This document shows positions 9,454-58,501 of a DNA stretch of 64,000 nt, in pieces (the stretch's first letter is position 1; each line of letters begins with the position of its first letter). Source of the stretch: Thermoleophilia bacterium (GTDB lineage: Bacteria > Actinomycetota > Thermoleophilia > BMS3ABIN01). The stretch lies in the NCBI GenBank assembly GCA_014874265.1, contig JACWAM010000018.1:5955-69954 (forward strand). Direction: 5' to 3'. Made by a program: the position numbers and the translations under genes. The notes under the pieces are model-generated. The model searched no databases and was not told the origin of the DNA. It saw only the letters and a program-made list of their open reading frames with translations.

Positions 9454-10944
9454 CTAGTAATGAATGCGCACGACCGTCCCGATCGGCGTCCAGTCCCACA
9501 GCCAGTGGGCGTCCGGCACCGGCAGCCCCACGCAACCGTGGCTGGTCGGGACGCCGAACCGGGTGGCCCAGTAGTTGCCATGGATGGTATAGTCGCCGTT
9601 AAACATCAGCACCCAGGGGACGTTGGGCGCGTTGTAACCGGGACCGGACATGTTGACCTTGTCCGCCTTGGCGTAGACGGTATAGGTTCCCGTGAGGCTC
9701 GGCGTTGCCTGGGAGCCGCTGGAGCAGATGAGTGTCCGGACGAGCTGGTTATTGTCATAAGCGCGAACCCTTTGCTCAGTCAAGTTGACATCGATCATCT
9801 TTGAAGGCTGGACGGTAAAGGTGCTCTGGACATCCTCCCGGAGAAAACTGCCACTGACTCCCCTGAGCGCGTCCTGCCCACCCTTCAGTTTAATGGTTAC
9901 TTTGCTGCCTTCGGTCCAATCCTGGTCGGGTTTAAACTCAAGCCTGTTTGGTTTGACCCAGGCCCATGATCCAGGTGTGGCGGGATCGATTGACACCAGG
10001 TCTTTGACGGCATCCTGATTCTTAATGTCCTCGGAGAAAGTCAGCGTCGGCCGCTCGCCGGTGGCGACAGCGGCCTCTCCATCTCCCGGGACAAACTCAA
10101 CTTTGAGCGGTTCGGTGGTTGAGACTTTTTGAGTGTAACTATGCGGCATCTGGACACCGTTCTTGCCGGTCGCTGCCGTTATCGTCAGGTTGAATTTCTC
10201 GCCTTGCTGATAAGGGGTATTGAGATCAATGTACGCTCGGGTCGGGTTTTTGCTATCGATGCGTGAAGAGCTCTTTATATCTGGTGACAGCTGATAGGAA
10301 AAAGACTTGATTGGTGTATTGAAGTCAACTGTAATTGGCTGCCCCATCGGGACTACCTGGACATTCTGGGAAAATATTGGCGCCGGCGTTGTGATTGTCG
10401 TAAACGAAAAATGGTCCGTGACTTGATTATGATGGGGACCGGTAAATGTGAGGCTGGTAAGCTCGGCGCTGACAGTAACGTCATAGCGGCAGTTGGAATG
10501 CAGTTGCATCGGCCCCCCCGAGGTGAGAAAGACGCCGTCCTGGAGATGACCGTCGATGTTTTTTTCTCCCGTGGAAGAGCCGGCGGGATCCAGCGAAGTC
10601 TCCTTCACCGTCACGCTCTTGATGCTGCCGCGCAGCCAGCTCGTCGATATTTTCAGCTGTTGATCGAGCGGTACCTCTTTGCTGCCATCTGCCGGTGAGA
10701 TTTTTACCGACGCGGGAAAAACTGACCCCAATGTGATGTAAAGGAGGATGATGACCGCCAGGAGGGAGATTCCCGCAAGGGCAATTGTCCTGCGCCGGCG
10801 GGAGTTCAGCGGAATACTGTTATGCCTCTGTATGGATGTAACCCTACTCATGAGCCGCGCCCGTAACCACCTCGAAGCTGTGGGCATATAACTATTATAT
10901 CGCGGCTGGTCCCTAAGAAAAAACCGGCAGGAGCGGTACGACAA
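9454..10944 (-). CDS. L,D-transpeptidase (YkuD domain) with N-terminal TM anchor and Ig-like repeats
   Basis: 496 aa with C-terminal HGNYWATRFGVPTSHGCVGLPVPDAHWLW, the catalytic His/Cys of the YkuD fold. Confidence 0.8.
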   Translation of the reverse strand: MSYRSCRFFLRDQPRYNSYMPTASRWLRARLMSRVTSIQRHNSIPLNSRRRRTIALAGISLLAVIILLYITLGSVFPASVKISPADGSKEVPLDQQLKISTSWLRGSIKSVTVKETSLDPAGSSTGEKNIDGHLQDGVFLTSGGPMQLHSNCRYDVTVSAELTSLTFTGPHHNQVTDHFSFTTITTPAPIFSQNVQVVPMGQPITVDFNTPIKSFSYQLSPDIKSSSRIDSKNPTRAYIDLNTPYQQGEKFNLTITAATGKNGVQMPHSYTQKVSTTEPLKVEFVPGDGEAAVATGERPTLTFSEDIKNQDAVKDLVSIDPATPGSWAWVKPNRLEFKPDQDWTEGSKVTIKLKGGQDALRGVSGSFLREDVQSTFTVQPSKMIDVNLTEQRVRAYDNNQLVRTLICSSGSQATPSLTGTYTVYAKADKVNMSGPGYNAPNVPWVLMFNGDYTIHGNYWATRFGVPTSHGCVGLPVPDAHWLWDWTPIGTVVRIHY

Positions 10945-10984
10945 CTCTAATCGAAAGATTTGCCAAGCCGATATTTATAATACG

Positions 10985-11070
10985 AGAACGAAAAAGGCAA
11001 ACCCATCGCGAGGTGGGGGCGCAAAGCTAGGGGTCTCCGAGAGAGACAGCCCGGCCGCCGAAGCTTGATA
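10985..11070 (+). promoter_or_regulatory. c-di-GMP-I (GEMM) riboswitch aptamer
   Basis: aaGGCAAACC-CAUCGCGAGGUGGG-GGCGCAAAGC-uaGGGGUCUCcgagaGAGACaGCCC. The GGCAAACC ... (GNRA hairpin) ... ACGCAAAGC hallmark is present, with P2 capped by the GCGA tetraloop. Confidence 0.7.
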
Positions 11071-11108
11071 AGCTGCTCTGGTTTGAGTGGCAAAGATGCT
11101 CGCACCGC

Positions 11109-11149
11109 AGCTCATCTCCTCTGACCCGTCGGGCAGGATGAGCTTTTTT
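11109..11149 (+). terminator. intrinsic terminator (riboswitch expression platform)
   Basis: agctcatctcctctgacccgtcgggcaggatgagct followed by TTTTT. Long GC stem with a T-run. Confidence 0.75.
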
Positions 11150-11218
11150 ACGCTCCCATCGGGAAGCCAAGCGCAAGCAAAGCAGCGACGCGGTTTGTCC
11201 ATTGAGCTGGCAGGAACA

Positions 11219-11650
11219 ATGGACAACGCAGGCAAAACAGGCACAAGAACAGGTAGCAACGGCAGATATCAGGCTTTGGTGCCAATGCTCATCTTGCTCG
11301 CTTGCGTTTGGCTTGTTCCGGCAGGGGGCGCCCTGGCGGTGTCTTCTCCCTCTCAAAGCGGCTCTACCAGTGTTTCCGTTACCGTCAGGGATGCTGTTTT
11401 TGTCAATGCTGCCAATCCCCTGCTCAGCGCTCCGCATGGATCACAAAAGCTTCAGATCACCACAACAATCGTCACCCGGACGGCATCCGGCTGTCACGAG
11501 ACTCAGTTGAAATCAGCAGGAGAGGCAGGACTCCCAATCGGGCAAGAGGCAGTCTCGGCCGCCGGAGCCGTCCGGGGCGGCTGCGCCCACCCAATGGCCG
11601 GATCGGCGTCCGGACCAACCGAGGTTTTTGTTACGGTGACGATGCTCTAA
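11219..11650 (+). CDS. small secreted protein of unknown function (Sec signal peptide; Ser/Thr/Val-rich beta-type mature region, two Cys)
   Basis: MDNAGKTGTRTGSNGRYQALVPMLILLACVWLVPAGGALA|VSSP... The track ORF 11087..11650 starts inside the riboswitch. ATG 11219 has AGGA 4 nt upstream; ATG 11285 is an alternative start. Confidence 0.45.
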   Translation: MDNAGKTGTRTGSNGRYQALVPMLILLACVWLVPAGGALAVSSPSQSGSTSVSVTVRDAVFVNAANPLLSAPHGSQKLQITTTIVTRTASGCHETQLKSAGEAGLPIGQEAVSAAGAVRGGCAHPMAGSASGPTEVFVTVTML

Positions 11651-11651
11651 G

Positions 11652-11703
11652 GGCTATCTCAAAGTCACATACCTGCCCTCCCTGGAACGATTTTGAGATA
11701 GCC
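11652..11703 (+). other. 12-bp perfect inverted repeat (ggctatctcaaa / tttgagatagcc) with 28-nt loop just after the secreted-protein stop
   Basis: Seen directly; no T-run follows it. Confidence 0.4.
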
Positions 11704-11954
11704 TTTACCGGTCTCAATCGCCTCTTTCGTTAAGTACCTCTTTCTGAGCCGCTAATTTCCTGTCGGAACAGGCTCCGCAGCCCGAAAAAACTTGCATTCC
11801 ATAGATTTAAAGGAAAAAGAAATCGGGTAGTAGAAATACTTCCTGCGGCCGCATACCAGTTGGCGCCGCGCTCCTCGAAAGGCCCTGCGTGCCCAAGAAA
11901 AATGAGCATCTGGTTTTTTGGCTTTGACTTTGCGCTCCCGGGTCCCAAGGAACA

Positions 11955-12455
11955 GTGAAAGCGATGAGTGATGACAGGAGGCAGATGGACATTCAAGAGA
12001 TGGTTGATCGAAGGATCGCCGAAATAACATCCCGGGCGGAACCAGAAAACCGCACAAGAGGAAATGAGAGTGAGCGTGAGCCCGGAGCCGCCCCTGTCAG
12101 CCAACTTGACAGGTTGGCTGAATTTGGAGAAATCATGGATGCAGCCCTGACCCAGGTAGCAGCCGAGGTTCTCGATGTAACCGAGCGCCTTGCGGGAGAC
12201 TATACGCGGCTGGAAAAGAACATTCTGAAATCAAAGCTGGAGGCGCTTAACGCTGTCGAGTCCGTTCTGGATACGGCTCTGTTTTTGAGGCGCGAGGCCA
12301 GGGAACGCCTGAGCCAGATTGAGAAAGGATTGCGCCGTGAAGTGGAAATCCCCGCTTCGAGGCGGGAAAGCGTTAGGGAACCGGTCACTCCGGAAGGAAG
12401 CCAGCGCGCCAGCATGCACGAAGGCGTTGCCGCACTGTTTAGAAGAACGCTTTGA
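11955..12455 (+). CDS. hypothetical charged/coiled-coil protein
   Basis: 166 aa, Glu/Arg/Leu-rich heptad-like sequence, no recognisable domain. Precedes the GGDEF gene. Confidence 0.35.
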   Translation: MKAMSDDRRQMDIQEMVDRRIAEITSRAEPENRTRGNESEREPGAAPVSQLDRLAEFGEIMDAALTQVAAEVLDVTERLAGDYTRLEKNILKSKLEALNAVESVLDTALFLRREARERLSQIEKGLRREVEIPASRRESVREPVTPEGSQRASMHEGVAALFRRTL

Positions 12456-12521: not shown

Positions 12522-13538
12522 ATGGAACAATCTTTCACATCGGGAGGCAGTCCGGGCGCTAACGCGGCGGAAGTGGTGGCGCGCAAAGCCGGCGAGTCAC
12601 TCAAGAGCAATGAAACCTGGATCGTCAGGGAGTGGATCAAGGGGATCATTGACGATCTTGGTCTGCTTTCACTGAAAGAATTTCCCAGCGGCGAGCTGGC
12701 AGGCAGTCTTCCGGGGATGATCCAGGCAATAGCCAGAGCCGTTTCTGACCCCGGTGAGGACCTCGCGGGAAACGCTGATTTGCAGGACGTGGCGGCGCGC
12801 CTGGCGGCGCTCAGGCGGGAAGAGCCAGCGGTCGCCAAGCTGATTGACGACCTGTCACTGCTTAAGAAGGTAATTCTGGCAGCGGCCGCCACGGATCTCA
12901 GGCGCTCGGACCTCGCCGTCCTTGACGTTGTTCAAAATCTTGACGACGGTTTTCGCCACCTGTTTAAGACAGGCATCGAAGCCTACTTCGAGCGCCACTC
13001 GGAAGAGCTGCAGCGGCAGGCCGACACCGACGCGCTCACCGGCCTCTACAACGTCCGCTTTTTTAGGCACCAGCTCCACCGGAATCTGGAAATGTACAAG
13101 CGCTACCGCATCCCTTTTTCGCTTCTGATGGTCGACTTGGATAAACTCAAGCAGCTAAACGATGTCCGCGGTCATGTCGCGGGAGACCTCGCCCTTAAGC
13201 ACCTGGCCAATATCATGACCGGCGAGAAACGGGAGACCGATGTTGCCGTCCGTTACGGCGGTGATGAGTTTTTCCTGCTGGCTCCCGGAACAACGGCCGA
13301 GGATGCCGAGCGCCTGGCGCGCCGGATAATCGACCGGGTAAAAGCGCTCAACCTGAGCACCTCCGGACGCGAGATGACCGGCGCCTCCATTGGCGTCGTC
13401 TGGTGCCCTGGAGACGGCACAGATGTTGGCACTCTGCGGGCAAAGGCGGACCGCGCCCTCTACCTGGCCAAATCGATTGGCGGCGCCGCGGTGGCGCATT
13501 ATGTCGAGTTCAGCGTGCAGCCGCAGATTGTGTTTTAA
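12522..13538 (+). CDS. diguanylate cyclase (GGDEF) with N-terminal sensor domain
   Basis: Motifs RYGGDEFFLL, HVAGDLALK and DALTGLYNVRFF. Confidence 0.85.
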   Translation: MEQSFTSGGSPGANAAEVVARKAGESLKSNETWIVREWIKGIIDDLGLLSLKEFPSGELAGSLPGMIQAIARAVSDPGEDLAGNADLQDVAARLAALRREEPAVAKLIDDLSLLKKVILAAAATDLRRSDLAVLDVVQNLDDGFRHLFKTGIEAYFERHSEELQRQADTDALTGLYNVRFFRHQLHRNLEMYKRYRIPFSLLMVDLDKLKQLNDVRGHVAGDLALKHLANIMTGEKRETDVAVRYGGDEFFLLAPGTTAEDAERLARRIIDRVKALNLSTSGREMTGASIGVVWCPGDGTDVGTLRAKADRALYLAKSIGGAAVAHYVEFSVQPQIVF

Positions 13539-20537: not shown

Positions 20538-23009
20538 TTAAGCGCCCATCCTCATCGCTTCATCGTTTTGACCCTTTTCGCCGGCTGTAATCACGTTAAT
20601 GAAGGCATCGACAACCTTTGGATCAAACTGAGCGCCCTTATTGTTCACCAGCTCGCTCAAGGCTCGCTGGACAGACAGCGCTTTGCGGTAGGGCCGATCG
20701 GACGTCATGGCCTCGTAGGCATCGGCGACAAAAAGGATCCTTGCCCCCAGCGGAATCTCTTCCGCCACCAGGCCGTCGGGATAGCCGCGCCCGTCGTATC
20801 GCTCGTGATGATGACGGACAATGGGCTGTATCGGGAAGGGGATTCCCACCGGCTTGAGGATGCGCTCGCTCAGAACCGGATGTTTCTTAATGATGTGAAA
20901 TTCCTCCAGGCTCAGTTTTCCGGGTTTCCTGAGGATTTCGTCAGGTATGCCGATCTTGCCGACGTCATGCAGATAACCGGCGTAGCGAATCGTGACTACC
21001 TCTTCGCTGCTTAAACCAAGTGACCTGGCGATCGCTTCGCCGTAGAGCGACACTTTCTCGGAGTGACCTCTCGTATAAGTGTCTTTGGCGTCGATTGTCT
21101 CGGCGAGAGACCGGATCGTTCCCACGAATGCTTCCTGAAGGTCATTAAAGATGCGGGAATTCTCGATCGCGATGGCGGCTTCATTTGCGGCGGTGGTCAG
21201 CAGTTCGATCTCATCGGAATTCAGGAGGCGCGGCTCGGCAAAATAGATGCAGATGACTCCGATACTCTCGTCTTTCGCCATCAGTGGCAGAGCTACCAGG
21301 GATGAATAACCCTGGACGGAAGCCATGTGCTTCCACGGCTCATAACCCGGATCGGAGAGAACGTTTTCCACGAAAACCGGTCTTTGCTGCGAGAAGGCAT
21401 CGCCGATCGGACCCTTGTTTAACGGTATTCGCTGCTTCTTGTTGACAGCCCAGATGTACTCGGCCGACAGGTTAAAGCTGGCGACGATACTGAGAAACCG
21501 CCCGCCGGCATCGGGAAGCAGCACGGATGCAAACTGGGCTTCGATCAGGCTGCCGACGCGCATTGCCACCACCCTGATAACGTCCTGATAATTGAGTGTT
21601 GATGTGAAAGCCTGGCTCATATTGTGCAAGGCCGACAGTTCCTGGACGTGCCATTCCGTTTTTTCGTACAGGCGGGCGTTATCGATTGTCACCGCTGCCT
21701 GATCCAGCAGCGTCTGATACAGCTCGATCTTCTTTTCCGAGAGCGGTGTGCGCTCACAACTCTCGACTTCGCCCAGGATAACTACGCCAACGATTTCCTG
21801 CTTCGACTTAAGCGGCAGCAGCACTGCCGCGCGCGTGTCCTGGGTCAAGGCCCATTCTTTTTCATCGGCACTGGGAATAGAAGAAGGGGTATACTTTCTC
21901 AGTATCACGGGTTTTCCAGTTTCCAGCACGGAGCAATGATGTGGGGCTTCCTGCAGGCCGATTTTCTCGCCCAGGCCATAGTTCCATTTGATTTTCCTCG
22001 TGGGCGAAGCGGCTTTTACCGTCAGTGAGCATCCGTGTTGATCAAGCATAGCTATACGGCAATAAGAGACTCTTTGCGAACTGGCAATTTTGTCACATAG
22101 AGTTTGTAAAATCCTGTCAACCTTAAGCGTTGAAGAAACTGCTGCGGCTGTCTCGAACAAAAGGCCGACTTCTTCATCTCTGGTTTTAAGAGATAAGGCC
22201 AGTTTGCGGAATTCTTGCGCCAGATCGCCGAGCTCATCCCGGCGTTTTAACACTGGAGTATGTTCGTAGTCCTCTTCACTCATTTGACTGGTGGCTTTTG
22301 TCAATTGCTTGACCGGCTTGATCAGCATTCTGTTGAGGGCAAAGTATAGCATTATCACCAATGCCAGGAGCGACAGGTTGATGATTATGGCAAACTGTAT
22401 CTGTTGTGATCTAATCAGGTGGTCGCGTTCTGCCGTGTTTAAATAAATCCCGACAGAAGCGATAATCCTGCCGGAATGATCGTGAAGAGACGTGATTGAT
22501 TCTTCACCGAATTGTGTCAGTTTACCCGTGGTGAAATTTGCCGGCTGTATGGTTGCGCCGGTCATTTTTGCGGCAACGGCGCCGGTGGCTGCGGCTGTTG
22601 AAGGCGCCTGGCTGTTGCCGCTGAGAAGAGGGACGGATTCGGCGGCCAGGGCGGGTAAGCCCACATCTGCATGATCGCTGCTGGCAATATTGATAATCCC
22701 GTTTTTCCCGGGGGCGTAAACGGAGATGCGATCAATTTCATGGGCTTTTACCATGACCGAGTCAATCTCGCCCTGCATGTGCTGGGCCAGGGTCATCCCG
22801 TGCATGTAGACAAGGCTGGCTTCCAGGAAGCTGGAGATTGTCTGGGCGCTGTCCTGGTATCTTTTGTTGATACCATCACTTAAAAACCGGGAAGAATAGA
22901 ATGTCAGAACGGAGCCGATTACCAGCACCGCCGCGCAGATTAATATGGACAGCTTGCCCCGCAAGCCGATTTGGGAATTAAAGTTCAAACCTGCCCGCCC
23001 GGATTCCAC
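20538..23009 (-). CDS. HD-GYP phosphodiesterase with periplasmic sensor, HAMP and tandem GAF domains
   Basis: 823 aa with HDVGKIGIPDEIL...HHERYDGRGYPDGL at the C-terminus. Confidence 0.85.
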   Translation of the reverse strand: MESGRAGLNFNSQIGLRGKLSILICAAVLVIGSVLTFYSSRFLSDGINKRYQDSAQTISSFLEASLVYMHGMTLAQHMQGEIDSVMVKAHEIDRISVYAPGKNGIINIASSDHADVGLPALAAESVPLLSGNSQAPSTAAATGAVAAKMTGATIQPANFTTGKLTQFGEESITSLHDHSGRIIASVGIYLNTAERDHLIRSQQIQFAIIINLSLLALVIMLYFALNRMLIKPVKQLTKATSQMSEEDYEHTPVLKRRDELGDLAQEFRKLALSLKTRDEEVGLLFETAAAVSSTLKVDRILQTLCDKIASSQRVSYCRIAMLDQHGCSLTVKAASPTRKIKWNYGLGEKIGLQEAPHHCSVLETGKPVILRKYTPSSIPSADEKEWALTQDTRAAVLLPLKSKQEIVGVVILGEVESCERTPLSEKKIELYQTLLDQAAVTIDNARLYEKTEWHVQELSALHNMSQAFTSTLNYQDVIRVVAMRVGSLIEAQFASVLLPDAGGRFLSIVASFNLSAEYIWAVNKKQRIPLNKGPIGDAFSQQRPVFVENVLSDPGYEPWKHMASVQGYSSLVALPLMAKDESIGVICIYFAEPRLLNSDEIELLTTAANEAAIAIENSRIFNDLQEAFVGTIRSLAETIDAKDTYTRGHSEKVSLYGEAIARSLGLSSEEVVTIRYAGYLHDVGKIGIPDEILRKPGKLSLEEFHIIKKHPVLSERILKPVGIPFPIQPIVRHHHERYDGRGYPDGLVAEEIPLGARILFVADAYEAMTSDRPYRKALSVQRALSELVNNKGAQFDPKVVDAFINVITAGEKGQNDEAMRMGA

Positions 23010-47827: not shown

Positions 47828-48154
47828 CGGACATCCTCTGCAGTTGCGGACCGGTTTTTATGGTTTTTATCGCTGCCCAGATGTTCGCAGTTTTGTTGCG
47901 GCCCAAACTGAATTTAGCACCCTCCGGCAATCAATGTCAACCAGACAGGACAATGGGGCGACTATTTGGCCAGACCGGAAAATGATCGACCGGAACGTGG
48001 CATTAAATGAGCTGATGGGATGATTTTGACGGTTGTTTCGCTCAATGAGCGTCACCACCGTTGATCACGCTACCCGGTTTGACTGTGACGGGATCGCCTG
48101 ATATCTTTTTTCCTGGAAATTGACGGGGCCGGGTGCCTTTTTCTTCTATCTCGG

Positions 48155-48335
48155 CAGGTAAACCTGCTTGGATGGAGTTCTAAGGAGAATAGGGAAGCCG
48201 GTGCAAATCCGGCGCGGGCCCGCCGCTGTAACCGGGAATCATCCCCTTAGTTACGTCACTGGACGCAAGTCTGGGAAGGCGGGGATTGTCGAAACCCGGG
48301 AGCCAGAAGACCTGCCCGGCAAACTGTAAATGCCG
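48155..48335 (+). promoter_or_regulatory. cobalamin (AdoCbl-type) riboswitch aptamer
   Basis: aatAGGGAAGCCGGTGCAAATCCGGCGCGGGCCCGCCGCTGTAACCGGG ... GTCACTGG ... GGGAAGGCGG ... GAGCCAGAAGACCTGCCCGG. B12-box and flanking conserved blocks are present; this does not match the TPP consensus. Confidence 0.75.
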
Positions 48336-48444: not shown

Positions 48445-49719
48445 ATGGCTACACAATTGGAACGGGCCCGGGCGGGCATTATTACAACAGAAATGGAGAA
48501 GGTGGCAGCTGAGGAGGACCTGTCGCCGGAGCAGATCCGGCAAGGCATGGTTGATGGTTCAATCGTGATTATCAGCGGGAACGGCCGCGCTGAAACCGCC
48601 ACCGGGATTGGGAGAGGCTTAAGAACGAAGGTCAATGCCAGTATTGGCACCTCATCCGACCTGATCGACATTGAGATGGAGCTGGAAAAGGCGGCTGTCG
48701 CGGCGGATACGGGCGCCGATACGCTCATGGAGCTAAGCACCGCCGGCGATCTTGATGATGTTCGCCGGCGCGTCCTGGCCGCAGTTTCCGTGCCGGTGGG
48801 AAATGTCCCTCTGTACCAGGCCAGCGCCGAAGCTGCGGCCAGTCTGGGCTCGAATCTGAAGATGACGGAAGATCTTCTGTTTGAGTTGGTGGAAAGGCAG
48901 TCAGCCGATGGTATCGGTTTCATGGCGATCCACTGTGGTATTAACCGGCTGACGCTAAGCGTCCTCAAGTCGCAAGGAGGGCGCAGCGGCGGTCTGGTAA
49001 GCCGTGGCGGGGCGTTTATGTCGGCATGGATGCAGGCGACTGATTCAGATAACCCGCTTTACGAACAATTTGACCGTCTGATTGAAATTCTGCATCAATA
49101 TGACGTCGTGCTGAGCCTGGGCAACGGCATGCGCGCCGGCGCCGTTAGCGACGCTACCGACAAGGCACAGATCCAGGAGTTAATCATCAACTGTGAACTG
49201 GCGGACCGGGCTCGGGACGCCGGGGTACAAGCGATGCTGGAAGGTCCCGGTCATATCCCCATCGACGAGATCAAGGCCAATGTCATCCTGGAGAAGAAGA
49301 TGAGCGGCGGCAAACCGTTTTATATGCTGGGGCCGATCACGACTGATGTCGCTCCTGGATATGACCATATTACGGCGGCTATCGGGTCTGCCTGGGCAGC
49401 CGCCTACGGTACGGATTTCATCTGTTACGTGACGCCAGCCGAGCACCTGGGCCTCCCCTACCCTGACGATGTGCGCCAGGGGGTCATGTCGTCCCGGATT
49501 GCCGCTCACGTGGGCGATATGATCAAGCTGGGCCGCCGCCAGGCGGATTACGAAATGGGCAAGGCCCGGCGGGATCTGGATTGGGAGAAGCAGTTTGCGC
49601 TGGCGCTTGATCCGGAGCAGGCCCGTTCGGTTCGCGATGCGCGCCCCGGCTCCGGCAGCGAGGGCTGCAGTATGTGCGGCGATCAGTGCGCTTTAAAGGT
49701 CGGAGAAGCCGCCTGCTAG
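48445..49719 (+). CDS. ThiC-family radical-SAM enzyme; candidate 5-hydroxybenzimidazole synthase (BzaF-like) rather than thiamin ThiC
   Basis: 424 aa ThiC fold with C-terminal CSMCGDQC Cys cluster. Preceded by a cobalamin riboswitch. Confidence 0.6.
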   Translation: MATQLERARAGIITTEMEKVAAEEDLSPEQIRQGMVDGSIVIISGNGRAETATGIGRGLRTKVNASIGTSSDLIDIEMELEKAAVAADTGADTLMELSTAGDLDDVRRRVLAAVSVPVGNVPLYQASAEAAASLGSNLKMTEDLLFELVERQSADGIGFMAIHCGINRLTLSVLKSQGGRSGGLVSRGGAFMSAWMQATDSDNPLYEQFDRLIEILHQYDVVLSLGNGMRAGAVSDATDKAQIQELIINCELADRARDAGVQAMLEGPGHIPIDEIKANVILEKKMSGGKPFYMLGPITTDVAPGYDHITAAIGSAWAAAYGTDFICYVTPAEHLGLPYPDDVRQGVMSSRIAAHVGDMIKLGRRQADYEMGKARRDLDWEKQFALALDPEQARSVRDARPGSGSEGCSMCGDQCALKVGEAAC

Positions 49720-55887: not shown

Positions 55888-55964
<77 letters not shown>

Positions 55965-56040
55965 ATTGAGACAGTTTATTGATGGTGAACTTTGGACGGT
56001 CGTATCTGCCATCTATCATCCACAATCTGCCATCCGTTTT

Positions 56041-56134
56041 TGGCGGAGAGGGAGGGATTCGAACCCTCGAGACGAGTCAACCCCGCCTACACGATTTCCA
56101 GTCGTGCTCCTTCGGCCAACTCGGACACCTCTCC
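56041..56134 (-). tRNA. tRNA-Ser (anticodon GGA)
   Basis: 94 nt, long variable arm, anticodon loop CUGGAAA, GGAGAGG acceptor stem, CCA encoded. Confidence 0.9.
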
Positions 56135-56198
56135 CTGAAGCGGATGCTGGATGCTGGAAAAACCGGATCCTGGTCCCAGTGTCTTCTGTCCGCTTTTT

Positions 56199-56292
<94 letters not shown>

Positions 56293-56375
56293 ATCTTAAA
56301 AATGTGTCACGTTTCGCTTTAACGATCTTAGCATTAAACGTTGAACTTGCTTAACGATCTAGTTTAGCGGAAAGG

Positions 56376-57647
56376 ATGGGCAGGGGAAAAGTAGAACTAA
56401 TATCCACTGCCATGGCGATAACCAGCATTGAGAAATATGAATCCTTGATCGGGGTAGAAGCCACCGAGCGCATCCTCCGCAAAGCGGCGCCGCTAATGGG
56501 GGCTCGGGTGGCATGCGTCAATTCGACCTATTACGGAGGCGGGGTTAGCGAGATTCTCGATCCATTGACGTTGCTTTTTGATAGTGTTGGTATCTCGGTG
56601 GAATGGCGTGTAATCATGGGGTCGCCCGACTTCTTCAGCATTACCAAGAAGATGCACAACGCCCTGCAGGGCGACCGTATCAACCTCTCCCTCCGGAAAA
56701 AGCGCATATATGAACGGACCACGTTTGAAAACGCGGTTCGCAACCAGCTTGACCACGATTATGTCATAGTACATGATCCGCAGCCGCTGGCTTTAATCGA
56801 GCACTATTCCCGGAAGGGTCCCTGGATCTGGCATTGCCATCCTGATATGTCGCAGCCAAATCCGGAGATCTGGAGCTACCTGCGCCCCTTTGTTGATCAA
56901 TATCAGGCCGCCATCTTTAGCATTCCGGCGTACCGCCAGGAACTGGACATCCCGCAGCTGTTTATTCAGCCGGCAATTGATCCCTTTTCCATAAAAAACA
57001 GAAAGCTCGACCGCAAGGTCATCGCGGACCGGCTCCGGCGTTACGGGATTCCAACCGATCTGCCGCTGGTGGCGCAAGTTTCCCGCTTTGACCGCTGGAA
57101 GGATCCCGAAGGGGTTATCGAGTCTTTCCGGCTGGCGCGAAAGCAGGTAGACTGCACCCTGGTGCTGCTGGGAGATGTCGCCACCGATGACCCTGAAGGC
57201 GAGGAGGTCTACCGTTCGCTGCTTGGCTCCCGTGAAGAGCGCATCATTATCCTCAGCCGTCAGGATTCAGCTCTGGTAAATGCGTTGCAGCAAAGCGCTA
57301 CGGTTATTTTGCAGAAATCCATCAAGGAAGGGTTCGGCATCACCGTTTCGGAAGCGTTGTGGAAAGGAACCCCGGTGATTGGTGGCAACGTGGGCGGCAT
57401 TCCATATCAGATCAAGGATGGCATCAATGGTTTTCTGGTTTCTACGATCGAAGAAGCGGCGGATAGAATAGTCCGGTTGCTGCATGACAGCGAGCTTCGC
57501 CGGCAGATGGGACATGGCGGCCGGAGGAGGGTCAAGGAGCAGTTTCTGATGAGCCGGCTGCTGGAAGATTATCTGGACCTGCTGGGATCTTTCGAGACCG
57601 TTTACCGGATGAAACAGGAGCCGCCGGCGGGATCGGAAGGCGGCTGA
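56376..57647 (+). CDS. glycosyltransferase family 4 (GT-B, retaining) protein
   Basis: 423 aa, N-terminal NSTYYGGGVSEIL and C-terminal EGFGITVSEALWKGTPVIGGNVGG, the EX7E-like motif region. Confidence 0.7.
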   Translation: MGRGKVELISTAMAITSIEKYESLIGVEATERILRKAAPLMGARVACVNSTYYGGGVSEILDPLTLLFDSVGISVEWRVIMGSPDFFSITKKMHNALQGDRINLSLRKKRIYERTTFENAVRNQLDHDYVIVHDPQPLALIEHYSRKGPWIWHCHPDMSQPNPEIWSYLRPFVDQYQAAIFSIPAYRQELDIPQLFIQPAIDPFSIKNRKLDRKVIADRLRRYGIPTDLPLVAQVSRFDRWKDPEGVIESFRLARKQVDCTLVLLGDVATDDPEGEEVYRSLLGSREERIIILSRQDSALVNALQQSATVILQKSIKEGFGITVSEALWKGTPVIGGNVGGIPYQIKDGINGFLVSTIEEAADRIVRLLHDSELRRQMGHGGRRRVKEQFLMSRLLEDYLDLLGSFETVYRMKQEPPAGSEGG

Positions 57648-58138
57648 TGGGAGGCTAAGCGCCGGGTCAGGAAGAACTCCCGAAGCAGAGACGCCGATTC
57701 CCCGGCCAATATTCCCCCGGTGACTGTCACTCTGTGATTCAGGCGCGGGTCGCCAACGATATCCATCAGGGTGCCGGCTGCGCCCGCCTTGGCATCCGGG
57801 GCTCCATAAAAGATGTTGTCAATGCGGGCCTGATAGATAGCGCCGGCGCACATTGGGCATGGCTCGATGGTAACATAAATATTACACCCGGTTAATCTCC
57901 AGCCACCCAACTGCTTCGCGGCCCGCCTGATTGCCAGGATCTCCGCGTGCGCGGTCGGGTCCCGGCGCTGCTCCCGCTCGTTTCCAGCGGCGGCAAGCAC
58001 CTCTCCCCTCCTCTCGATTACGGCTCCGACCGGCACATCTCCATTGACACCGGCCTGACGAGCCTCCTCCAGAGCCAGAAACATAAATTGCCCGGAGGCT
58101 GGAGGCTGGAGGCTGGAGGCTGGATAGAAAGAACTCAT
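57602..58138 (-). CDS. tadA: tRNA-specific adenosine-34 deaminase
   Basis: HAEILAIRRAA...VTIEPCPMCAGAI CDA zinc motif. Probable true start MFLALEEARQAG (58084); the 5' extension is encoded by a heptamer repeat. Confidence 0.85.
   Translation of the reverse strand: MSSFYPASSLQPPASGQFMFLALEEARQAGVNGDVPVGAVIERRGEVLAAAGNEREQRRDPTAHAEILAIRRAAKQLGGWRLTGCNIYVTIEPCPMCAGAIYQARIDNIFYGAPDAKAGAAGTLMDIVGDPRLNHRVTVTGGILAGESASLLREFFLTRRLASHQPPSDPAGGSCFIR
58094..58123. repeat. tandem heptamer (GAGGCTG) x4 at the 5' end/upstream of tadA
   Basis: Seen directly. Confidence 0.8.
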
Positions 58139-58232
58139 TCAGAGGATTTTGAAGACGTGGTGGGCTCCATTAGCACTTGGTTTAGATTTTGGTTTGATCT
58201 AAATTCAAAAATCGGTGTCGGCACCTGCTTTT

Positions 58233-58309
58233 TGGCGCGCCCGACAGGATTCGAACCTGTGGCCTTTGGATTCGTAGTCCAACGCTCTATCCAGCTGAGC
58301 TACGGGCGC
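58233..58309 (-). tRNA. tRNA-Arg (anticodon ACG)
   Basis: 77 nt, anticodon loop CUACGAA. Nearly identical backbone to the Arg(CCG) tRNA. Confidence 0.9.
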
Positions 58310-58405
58310 TTAAAAGCGGGACTTTAAACACCAGATGCTGGACATTTGGATGAACCTGGAAGCAATAATTGCAATGTCCGAAGTCTAACATCCAATATCC
58401 GCTTT

Positions 58406-58501
58406 TGGCGGAGAGGGAGGGATTCGAACCCTCGAAGGAGGCTCAAAACCCCCTTAATCGCTTAGCAGGCGATCGCCTTCAGCCGGCTCGGCCACCTCTC
58501 C
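58406..58501 (-). tRNA. tRNA-Ser (anticodon GCU)
   Basis: 96 nt, long D-loop and variable arm, anticodon loop CUGCUAA. Confidence 0.85.

Follow-up and report, generated by a model that had tools for sequence, protein, structure and literature searches.

A candidate c-di-GMP-I riboswitch in the leader of a small secreted-protein gene from a Thermoleophilia bacterium

What does an RNA element of the GEMM-I type control in front of a small gene without recognisable family, and would its ligand, cyclic dimeric guanosine monophosphate (hereafter abbreviated as c-di-GMP), turn that gene on or off? The question arises from a stretch of 64,000 nucleotides (nt) of contig JACWAM010000018.1 of a Thermoleophilia bacterium, hereafter called the window and numbered from its first letter, in which such an element precedes an open reading frame (ORF) at 11219-11650. 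Our answer is that the 5' leader of this ORF would carry a canonical c-di-GMP-I riboswitch, that the gene would be monocistronic and code for a small protein secreted by the Sec route, and that c-di-GMP most likely favours termination of its transcription; to this answer as a whole we give slightly better than even credence. The first-pass annotation of the locus had proposed a riboswitch with an intrinsic terminator ahead of a small secreted protein, a proposal now supported by the score of the covariance model, the canonical nucleotides of ligand contact, the covarying terminator and antiterminator, and the linkage of aptamer and gene in 12 of 12 loci.

The combination of a canonical aptamer with a strand shared by antiterminator and terminator would amount to transcription attenuation under ligand control. 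In the mechanism we propose, the aptamer at 10987-11063 would bind c-di-GMP via the standard pocket of G20, A47 and C92, while strand 11107-11116 would pair either with 11067-11076, forming an antiterminator, or with 11137-11144, forming a terminator followed by U6. Ligand binding would select between the two helices and the level of c-di-GMP would thereby set the number of transcripts that reach the ORF.

The aptamer and its linkage to the small gene

We scanned the whole window with cmscan at curated thresholds and found at 10987-11063 on the forward strand a match beyond chance that covers the full RF03167 model (positions 1-80 of 80; 69.8 bits, gathering score 59, E = 1.9e-14). Another family of its clan, CL00126, also exceeds its own threshold at these coordinates, where it is hidden by clan competition. 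The match had been anticipated for RF01051; the score is indeed above threshold, but the best model is RF03167. The parts of the aptamer are as follows.

10987-11063, forward strand: c-di-GMP-I (GEMM-I) aptamer, RF03167 match, with near-identical aptamers 5' of all homologous ORFs
10996-11003, forward strand: core GGCAAACC, read from the sequence
10989-90 paired with 11059-60, forward strand: P1, with a possible extension of 10985-86 paired with 11064-65
11002-11017, forward strand: P2, a 6-bp hairpin (CCCAUC/GGUGGG) with a GCGA (GNRA) loop, read from the sequence
11018-11027, forward strand: GGCGCAAAGC, 3' of the P2 hairpin
11025-11056, forward strand: P3 hairpin, read from the sequence
10996, forward strand: G, equivalent to G20 of Vc2 by model alignment, predicted contact of G-alpha; not the A of GEMM-Ib aptamers of the cyclic GMP-AMP (cGAMP) type
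11023, forward strand: A, equivalent to A47 of Vc2 by alignments to the RF03167 and RF01051 models
11058, forward strand: C, equivalent to C92 of Vc2 by model alignment, predicted Watson-Crick pair with G-beta of the ligand

The GEMM-I hallmark that had been recognised by eye, namely the core, the 6-bp P2 with its GCGA loop and a P3-like hairpin, is all found at these positions. The three helices and the GCGA loop, which would dock into P3, are present, the inner stem of P3 covaries in the most divergent relative (L128; related loci are hereafter designated by L numbers), and C11020 and G11049 would, judging from the sequence alone, form the C44-G83 bridge. Position 43 is G in the window and A in both family consensus sequences. 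The Vc2 numbering is mapped here onto the window aptamer as we take it to apply, and the role of A47 is likewise our assumption. On this alignment the window aptamer is a standard c-di-GMP-I aptamer with the canonical G20/A47/C92 triad, and c-di-GMP is its predicted ligand. The roles of G20 and C92 in ligand contact, as well as A at position 20 as the defining feature of cGAMP-type GEMM-Ib, have been described previously (PMC6140456).

For the comparison of loci, the DNA around seven relatives was examined, while L048 and L102 came from an aptamer scan. In each of the 12 loci with the protein family that we examined, the small ORF is preceded at a distance of 150-250 nt by an aptamer of clan CL00126, so that the linkage of aptamer and gene is shown at the level of sequence. 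Each of the ten complete relatives has RF03167 as its best model (61-74.5 bits); in the relatives truncated at the 5' end, RF01051 itself wins (46.7 and 35.1 vs. a threshold of 35).

The expression platform and the sign of the switch

The leader 3' of the aptamer was compared across 11 relatives, among which the terminator arms provide seven distinct sequences and the antiterminator arms nine distinct leaders. It contains the following elements.

11067-11076, forward strand: 5' arm of the antiterminator, GAUAAGCUGC, predicted to pair with 11107-11116
11072-11091, forward strand: hairpin M1 (GCUGCUC/GAGUGGC), RNAalifold consensus with compensatory changes at three pairs
11107-11116, forward strand: switching strand, GCAGCUCAUC, 3' arm of the antiterminator and, from 11109 on, 5' arm of the terminator
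11109-11149, forward strand: intrinsic terminator, with stem 11109-11116 paired with 11137-11144, inner stem 11121-27 paired with 11131-36, and U6 at 11144-11149
11152-11165 and 11166-11194, forward strand: two conserved hairpins following the terminator (RNAalifold, 11 leaders), in which pair 31/53 covaries (A-U, G-C, U-A)
11190-11229, forward strand: hairpin predicted to sequester the start codon, with core 11195-11204 (UUGUCCAUUG) paired with 11217-11226 (CAAUGGACAA)
11219-11650, forward strand: ORF of 143 amino acids (aa), with a predicted signal peptide at residues 1-40 (nt 11219-11338) and substitutions of coding type relative to L001

The expected terminator 3' of the aptamer is confirmed as a hairpin at 11109-11144 that runs into T6 (11144-11149) and has undergone compensatory changes among the relatives. 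Folded alone, this hairpin has an energy of -17.1 kcal/mol (z -2.7), and the gap-free alignment of its arms shows 88.9% of cells paired, with three pairs changed on both sides, vs. 27-41% of cells paired in sliding controls in which the partner was shifted by 1-3 columns. A simple terminator scanner made no call at 11109-11144 because of the internal loop in the hairpin; alignment indels kept RNAalifold from detecting the terminator in the expression platform, and gap-free alignments of the arms were used instead. The nascent window transcript has the antiterminator as its minimum-energy structure when it ends at 11114-11126, before the 3' arm of the terminator is made. Its helix has 90.3% of cells paired and two pairs doubly changed (sliding controls, 11-44%). 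In addition, U11115 covaries with both of its partners, 11068 in the antiterminator and 11138 in the terminator, which is good evidence that both helices are in use.

Hairpin M1 is mutually exclusive with the core of the antiterminator. The part of the leader that lies 3' of the terminator is unexpectedly conserved and forms three hairpins in the RNAalifold consensus of the 11 leaders. The z-score of the fold of the whole leader (-0.75) is uninformative, and an Rfam search by E-value for a second RNA family in 11064-11960 returned chance matches only. We regard the conservation of the terminator, antiterminator and start-codon hairpins as shown by these comparisons of related sequences.

The sign of regulation is less firmly settled by our analysis, in which c-di-GMP promoting termination (OFF) has a little more than an even chance, c-di-GMP promoting read-through (ON) is possible but a good deal less probable, and the rest is left to something else. 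Two known switches offer a guide: in Cd1, which is OFF, aptamer and terminator can be formed together and the competition comes from a separate antiterminator, whereas in pilM, which is ON, aptamer and terminator exclude each other (PMC9262584). In the window no nucleotides are common to aptamer and terminator and there is a separate antiterminator; this is the layout of Cd1, hence our lean towards OFF. In such a switch, the ligand would stabilise P1 and its extension and so tie up the linker, from which the antiterminator has to start if it is to displace M1. We also count for OFF that in L128 the 3' strand of P1 and the linker are complementary to the 5' arm of the terminator over 13 bp.

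Several observations weigh against this reading. Equilibrium partition functions computed with the aptamer locked or free, both at full length and before the 3' arm of the terminator, give no consistent difference in the occupancy of terminator or antiterminator in nine leaders, and those of the window, L048, L124 and L127 lean slightly in the direction opposite to OFF. The 5' arm of the window antiterminator scarcely overlaps P1; an overlap needs P1 to be extended to 11067-11070, which would require transcription to start upstream of ~10981. In leaders of the L102 type, the 5' arm of the terminator is unpaired in the fold of lowest energy that precedes the terminator, and the U-run, which is 6-7 nt in most relatives, is interrupted in three of the 11 (L001, L128 and L130). 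Moreover, the palindrome AGCU is present four times, at 11062 (3' strand of P1), 11071, 11109 and 11141, and is conserved in nearly all leaders, an arrangement that suits the ON alternative considered below. Finally, the AlphaFold2 model of the cargo, built on an alignment of 14 sequences, has a mean confidence (pLDDT) of 47.7, predicts the signal helix only and is unusable; a small structural role outside the cell or at its surface is a guess from composition and neighbourhood. Scans for duplexes that the terminator arms might form yielded several candidates, all of them weak.

The four copies of the palindrome suggest instead a four-segment switch resembling the trp attenuator, in which P1 held by the ligand would free segment 2 for the antiterminator and thus cause read-through. 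Without ligand, a hairpin of segments 1 and 2 (11062-66 paired with 11070-74) would leave segments 3 and 4 for the terminator. This 1:2 hairpin is present in the minimum-energy structure of full length, and locking the aptamer lowers the probability of the terminator base in the same four leaders that lean against OFF, for example from 0.76 to 0.45; moreover, genes for secreted matrix proteins and adhesins are usually turned on by c-di-GMP. The hairpin is, however, short, with 4-5 bp in general and 3 bp in L125 and L128, does not covary, and is far weaker than M1, the covarying competitor for segment 2. Locking the aptamer changes nothing in the leaders of L102, L125, L128 and L130, and the direct overlap of aptamer and terminator that characterises known ON switches responding to c-di-nucleotides (PMC9262584) is absent at the window locus. 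We consider activation by this route possible but distinctly less probable than c-di-GMP-promoted termination.

The start-codon hairpin and the secreted protein

The start codon of the ORF (AUG, 11219-11221) lies in the stem of the hairpin at 11190-11229, the 12-nt loop of which contains the Shine-Dalgarno sequence AGGA (11212-11215). The hairpin has an energy of -18.6 kcal/mol (z -4.3), equalled by none of 200 shuffles, and among the 11 leaders three of its pairs have changed on both sides in a compensatory manner, with coupled changes in codons 2-3. Transcripts that read through the terminator would still carry this structure and, since the AUG is buried in a conserved hairpin, translation may be further limited or under separate control.

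The aptamer core GGCAAACC (10996-11003) has a complement at the foot of the hairpin, GGUUUG(U)CC / GGUUUGUCC (11192-11200). Translation might then be the main regulated step, the ligand-free core pairing with GGUUUGUCC and so opening the AUG hairpin, while the ligand would keep the AUG buried. The 8-nt complementarity is perfect in L102 and L122, has one bulge elsewhere and is conserved in every leader; furthermore, the hairpin is real and so stable that something must open it. Yet the invariance of GGUUUG is already accounted for by the two adjacent local hairpins, covariation provides no test because GGCAAACC never varies, and the partners are ~195 nt apart with the terminator in between. 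By our estimate, a match of 8 nt between any part of the 77-nt aptamer and 100 nt of leader would be expected by chance in ~10% of cases. We consider this explanation unlikely. Equally speculative, and improbable in our judgement, is a two-layer c-di-GMP module peculiar to Thermoleophilia-type Actinomycetota, in which one aptamer would gate both the terminator and, by the long-range pairing of GGCAAACC, the AUG hairpin, and in which the small secreted product would represent a class of its own, perhaps a subunit of a fibre or sheath or a peptidoglycan-tethered substrate of the neighbouring L,D-transpeptidase.

The protein itself agrees with the earlier description of a ~140-aa product with a Sec-type signal peptide: it has 143 aa, a charged N-terminus (K6, R10 and R16), a hydrophobic stretch at residues 19-40 (Kyte-Doolittle values up to 2.8) and an A-L-A motif at residues 38-40, in which A40 is invariant. 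Secretion via a Sec-type signal peptide is therefore predicted, the 22 residues of the h-region being a length that would also suit a membrane anchor. The mature part is rich in Ser, Thr and Val and has a conserved C-terminal V.VTV..L. The two Cys noted previously in the mature part are present (C92 and C122), but the protein has three Cys in total and the mature pair is not conserved, being W and G in a homologue with 86% identity, whereas C29 of the signal peptide is conserved. We rejected a lipoprotein processed by signal peptidase II, as the window sequence L-L-A-C29 is replaced in about half of the family by V-L-V-C or V-I-V-C, with Val at position -1, and hydrophobic residues follow the Cys.

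A word-indexed search of 5.8 billion proteins retrieved only the protein itself, as a database call of 184 aa starting at 11096, and one fragment with 86% identity that sits on a metagenome contig of 846 bp (L001) together with the aptamer, the hairpin and the ORF. The window and L001 differ at 10, 5 and 24 sites in codon positions 1, 2 and 3, respectively, and L001 has a 12-nt deletion that preserves the frame of the ORF and a 2-nt indel at ~11101 that breaks the 184-aa frame. This indel points to the ATG at 11219 as the true start and to the public record P0001 (184 aa, ATG at 11096) as over-extended across the expression platform; its annotated N-terminus, read through the terminator and the leader hairpins (11096-11218), is probably wrong.

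By an exhaustive HMMER search for distant relatives, followed by a profile search, the family comes to 14 proteins of 80-141 aa, P0006 having been excluded for its resemblance to low-complexity noise. The few members with a named source are from metagenome-assembled genomes of 'Thermoleophilia' or 'Actinobacteria'. Common to them are an N-terminus with charged residues, a long hydrophobic stretch containing AC.WL.P and an A-x-A site with the invariant A40, followed in the mature part by the strand-like V.V.V.DA..V, by (I/V)TT..VTRTASS and by the C-terminal V.VTV..L. The middle region, rich in Gly, Pro and Asp, is variable and wholly deleted in the member of 80 aa, so that the mature core can be as short as ~45 aa. 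Profile searches of Pfam, NCBIfam and PDB with the family of ORF 11219-11650 gave nothing significant, in line with the first impression that the cargo has no recognisable family. (Separately, the database start of P0010 in L128/L129, at 2468-2500, should probably be moved upstream by 33 nt, to an in-frame ATG that adds the charged N-terminus and that, unlike the annotated start, lies within the conserved hairpin.)

The variant label, the locus and known switches

Since the top match in the clan is RF03167 rather than RF01051, the name of this family, 'c-di-GMP-I-GGC variant', might hint at a different ligand. We take 'GGC' to name positions 20, 47 and 92, which fits the consensus of the RF03167 model; around position 47 the consensus reads ...GACGC-G-AAgC... 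in RF03167 and ...GACGC-A-AAgC... in RF01051. As a control, we scanned one genome per species with a pattern of the aptamer scaffold that leaves position 47 unconstrained. All 122 scaffold matches listed have A at position 47, and 24 of these 122 have G at position 43, as in the window. When Rfam models were run on scan loci, RF03167 scored higher than RF01051 in 16 of 18 unrelated A47 aptamers from many phyla, so that the label is a property of the models and is not diagnostic.

We accordingly rejected the 'GGC variant' identity, the window and all 12 related loci having A, not G, at the position that names the variant, and also the cGAMP-type GEMM-Ib identity, position 20 (10996) being G and not A. 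That the ligand is 3',3'-cGAMP or some other dinucleotide is thus very improbable: the label that might suggest it has no discriminating power, and G43, which departs from the A of both consensus sequences, is also found in canonical-type aptamers. For annotators this means that an RF03167 label on c-di-GMP-I aptamers of such shape should not imply a variant binding site; automated 'variant' labels within clan CL00126 are unreliable. As a separate observation from unrelated genomes, L003, L011, L088 and L109 each have two c-di-GMP-I aptamers within one 8-kb stretch, and those of L109 are directly in tandem (2387-2448 and 2450-2524).

The candidate ends of the transcript and the genes relevant to c-di-GMP are listed here.

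10970-10975, forward strand: candidate -10 element GATATT, at a fixed 12 nt from the 'ACG' of P1 in eight of nine full-length leaders
10976-10981, forward strand: perfect TATAAT, overlapping the conserved candidate -10 and specific to the window
11648-11706, forward strand: long hairpin across the stop codon, then UUUAC (-26.7 kcal/mol, z -4.9)
9454-10944, reverse strand: YkuD L,D-transpeptidase with Big domains, a flanking gene in every related locus
11955-12455, forward strand: hypothetical protein without Pfam match, a flanking gene in every related locus
12522-13538, forward strand: GGDEF protein in which the GGDEF motif is intact and an RxxD I-site is present, a flanking gene in every related locus
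20538-23009, reverse strand: HAMP-GAF-HD_5 protein of 823 aa by domain search, candidate c-di-GMP phosphodiesterase of HD-GYP type

The alignment of leaders shows an upstream motif, GCCGATATTT, with a constant spacing of 12 nt to the 'ACG' of P1, which we consider a candidate -10 element. A convincing -35 element was not found upstream of the aptamer, where the promoter scanner made no call either; transcription would start at ~10982-10989. At the other end, transcription probably stops at the hairpin of 11648-11706, in place of which relatives have another long hairpin with a T-run; the small gene is thus likely to be transcribed by itself. We also observed an element of ~100 nt that is conserved right after the small ORF in L048 (4110-4230) and L102 (1050-1170, reverse strand), and at the same relative place in L122-L127. 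It consists of a GUCGG/CCGAC hairpin followed by GCUYUGGCGGC...GCCGCCRRAGC enclosing UGCCC...UCCCU...GGGAU, usually with a T-run thereafter; it has no match to an Rfam family, and the window and L001 carry a different hairpin at this place.

Gene order is the same in every locus that is long enough: thioredoxin (forward), YkuD L,D-transpeptidase (reverse), aptamer with small ORF (forward), a hypothetical protein of 150-200 aa (forward) and a GGDEF protein (forward). Given the fixed divergent pairing with the L,D-transpeptidase, the small protein could be a substrate of this enzyme. As to the several genes of c-di-GMP turnover that the window had been said to hold, two are confirmed, those for the GGDEF and HAMP-GAF-HD_5 proteins. 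Elsewhere in the window we noted a cobalamin riboswitch aptamer at 48139-48333 on the forward strand (RF00174, 112.7 bits, E = 2e-27), upstream of an ORF of 424 aa (48445-49719), and a cluster of five tRNA genes at 55891-58501 on the reverse strand, which includes three long-arm types of 91-93 nt.

Compared with known systems, the window aptamer resembles Vc2 and Cd1 (RF01051, CL00126) in its three helices, the cores GGCAAACC and ACGCAAAGC, the GNRA loop of P2 and G20/A47/C92, and Cd1 also in having an intrinsic terminator that lies 3' of the aptamer without overlap, with a separate antiterminator. It differs from both in a short P3, a very short P1 and G rather than A at position 43, as well as in its host, a Thermoleophilia-type actinomycete, in its orphan secreted cargo and in the additional AUG hairpin after the terminator. 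The RF03167 variant provides the best-scoring model, but the window has A in place of the eponymous G47. With GEMM-Ib (Geobacter Gs1761, pilM) the window aptamer shares fold and clan, the predicted switching of a transcription terminator and the frequent position ahead of genes for secreted or surface proteins, but GEMM-Ib has A20 (PMC6140456) where the window has G, and in pilM aptamer and terminator are mutually exclusive and the switch is ON (PMC9262584), whereas they are able to coexist in the window.

The riboswitch class is known, its cargo here is uncharacterised and restricted to one lineage, and the leader has an extra translational hairpin. There are well-studied riboswitches for c-di-GMP in Firmicutes, Vibrio and Geobacter, while c-di-GMP in Actinomycetota is known mainly via protein effectors and, to our knowledge, its riboswitches have hardly been studied in that phylum. 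The present locus offers a clean and conserved case from Actinomycetota, with 12 of 12 loci in agreement and covarying terminator, antiterminator and AUG hairpins. Its link to one orphan secreted protein, always beside an L,D-transpeptidase and a diguanylate cyclase, would make this protein a concrete candidate for a c-di-GMP-controlled component of the cell surface or matrix in an uncultured lineage.

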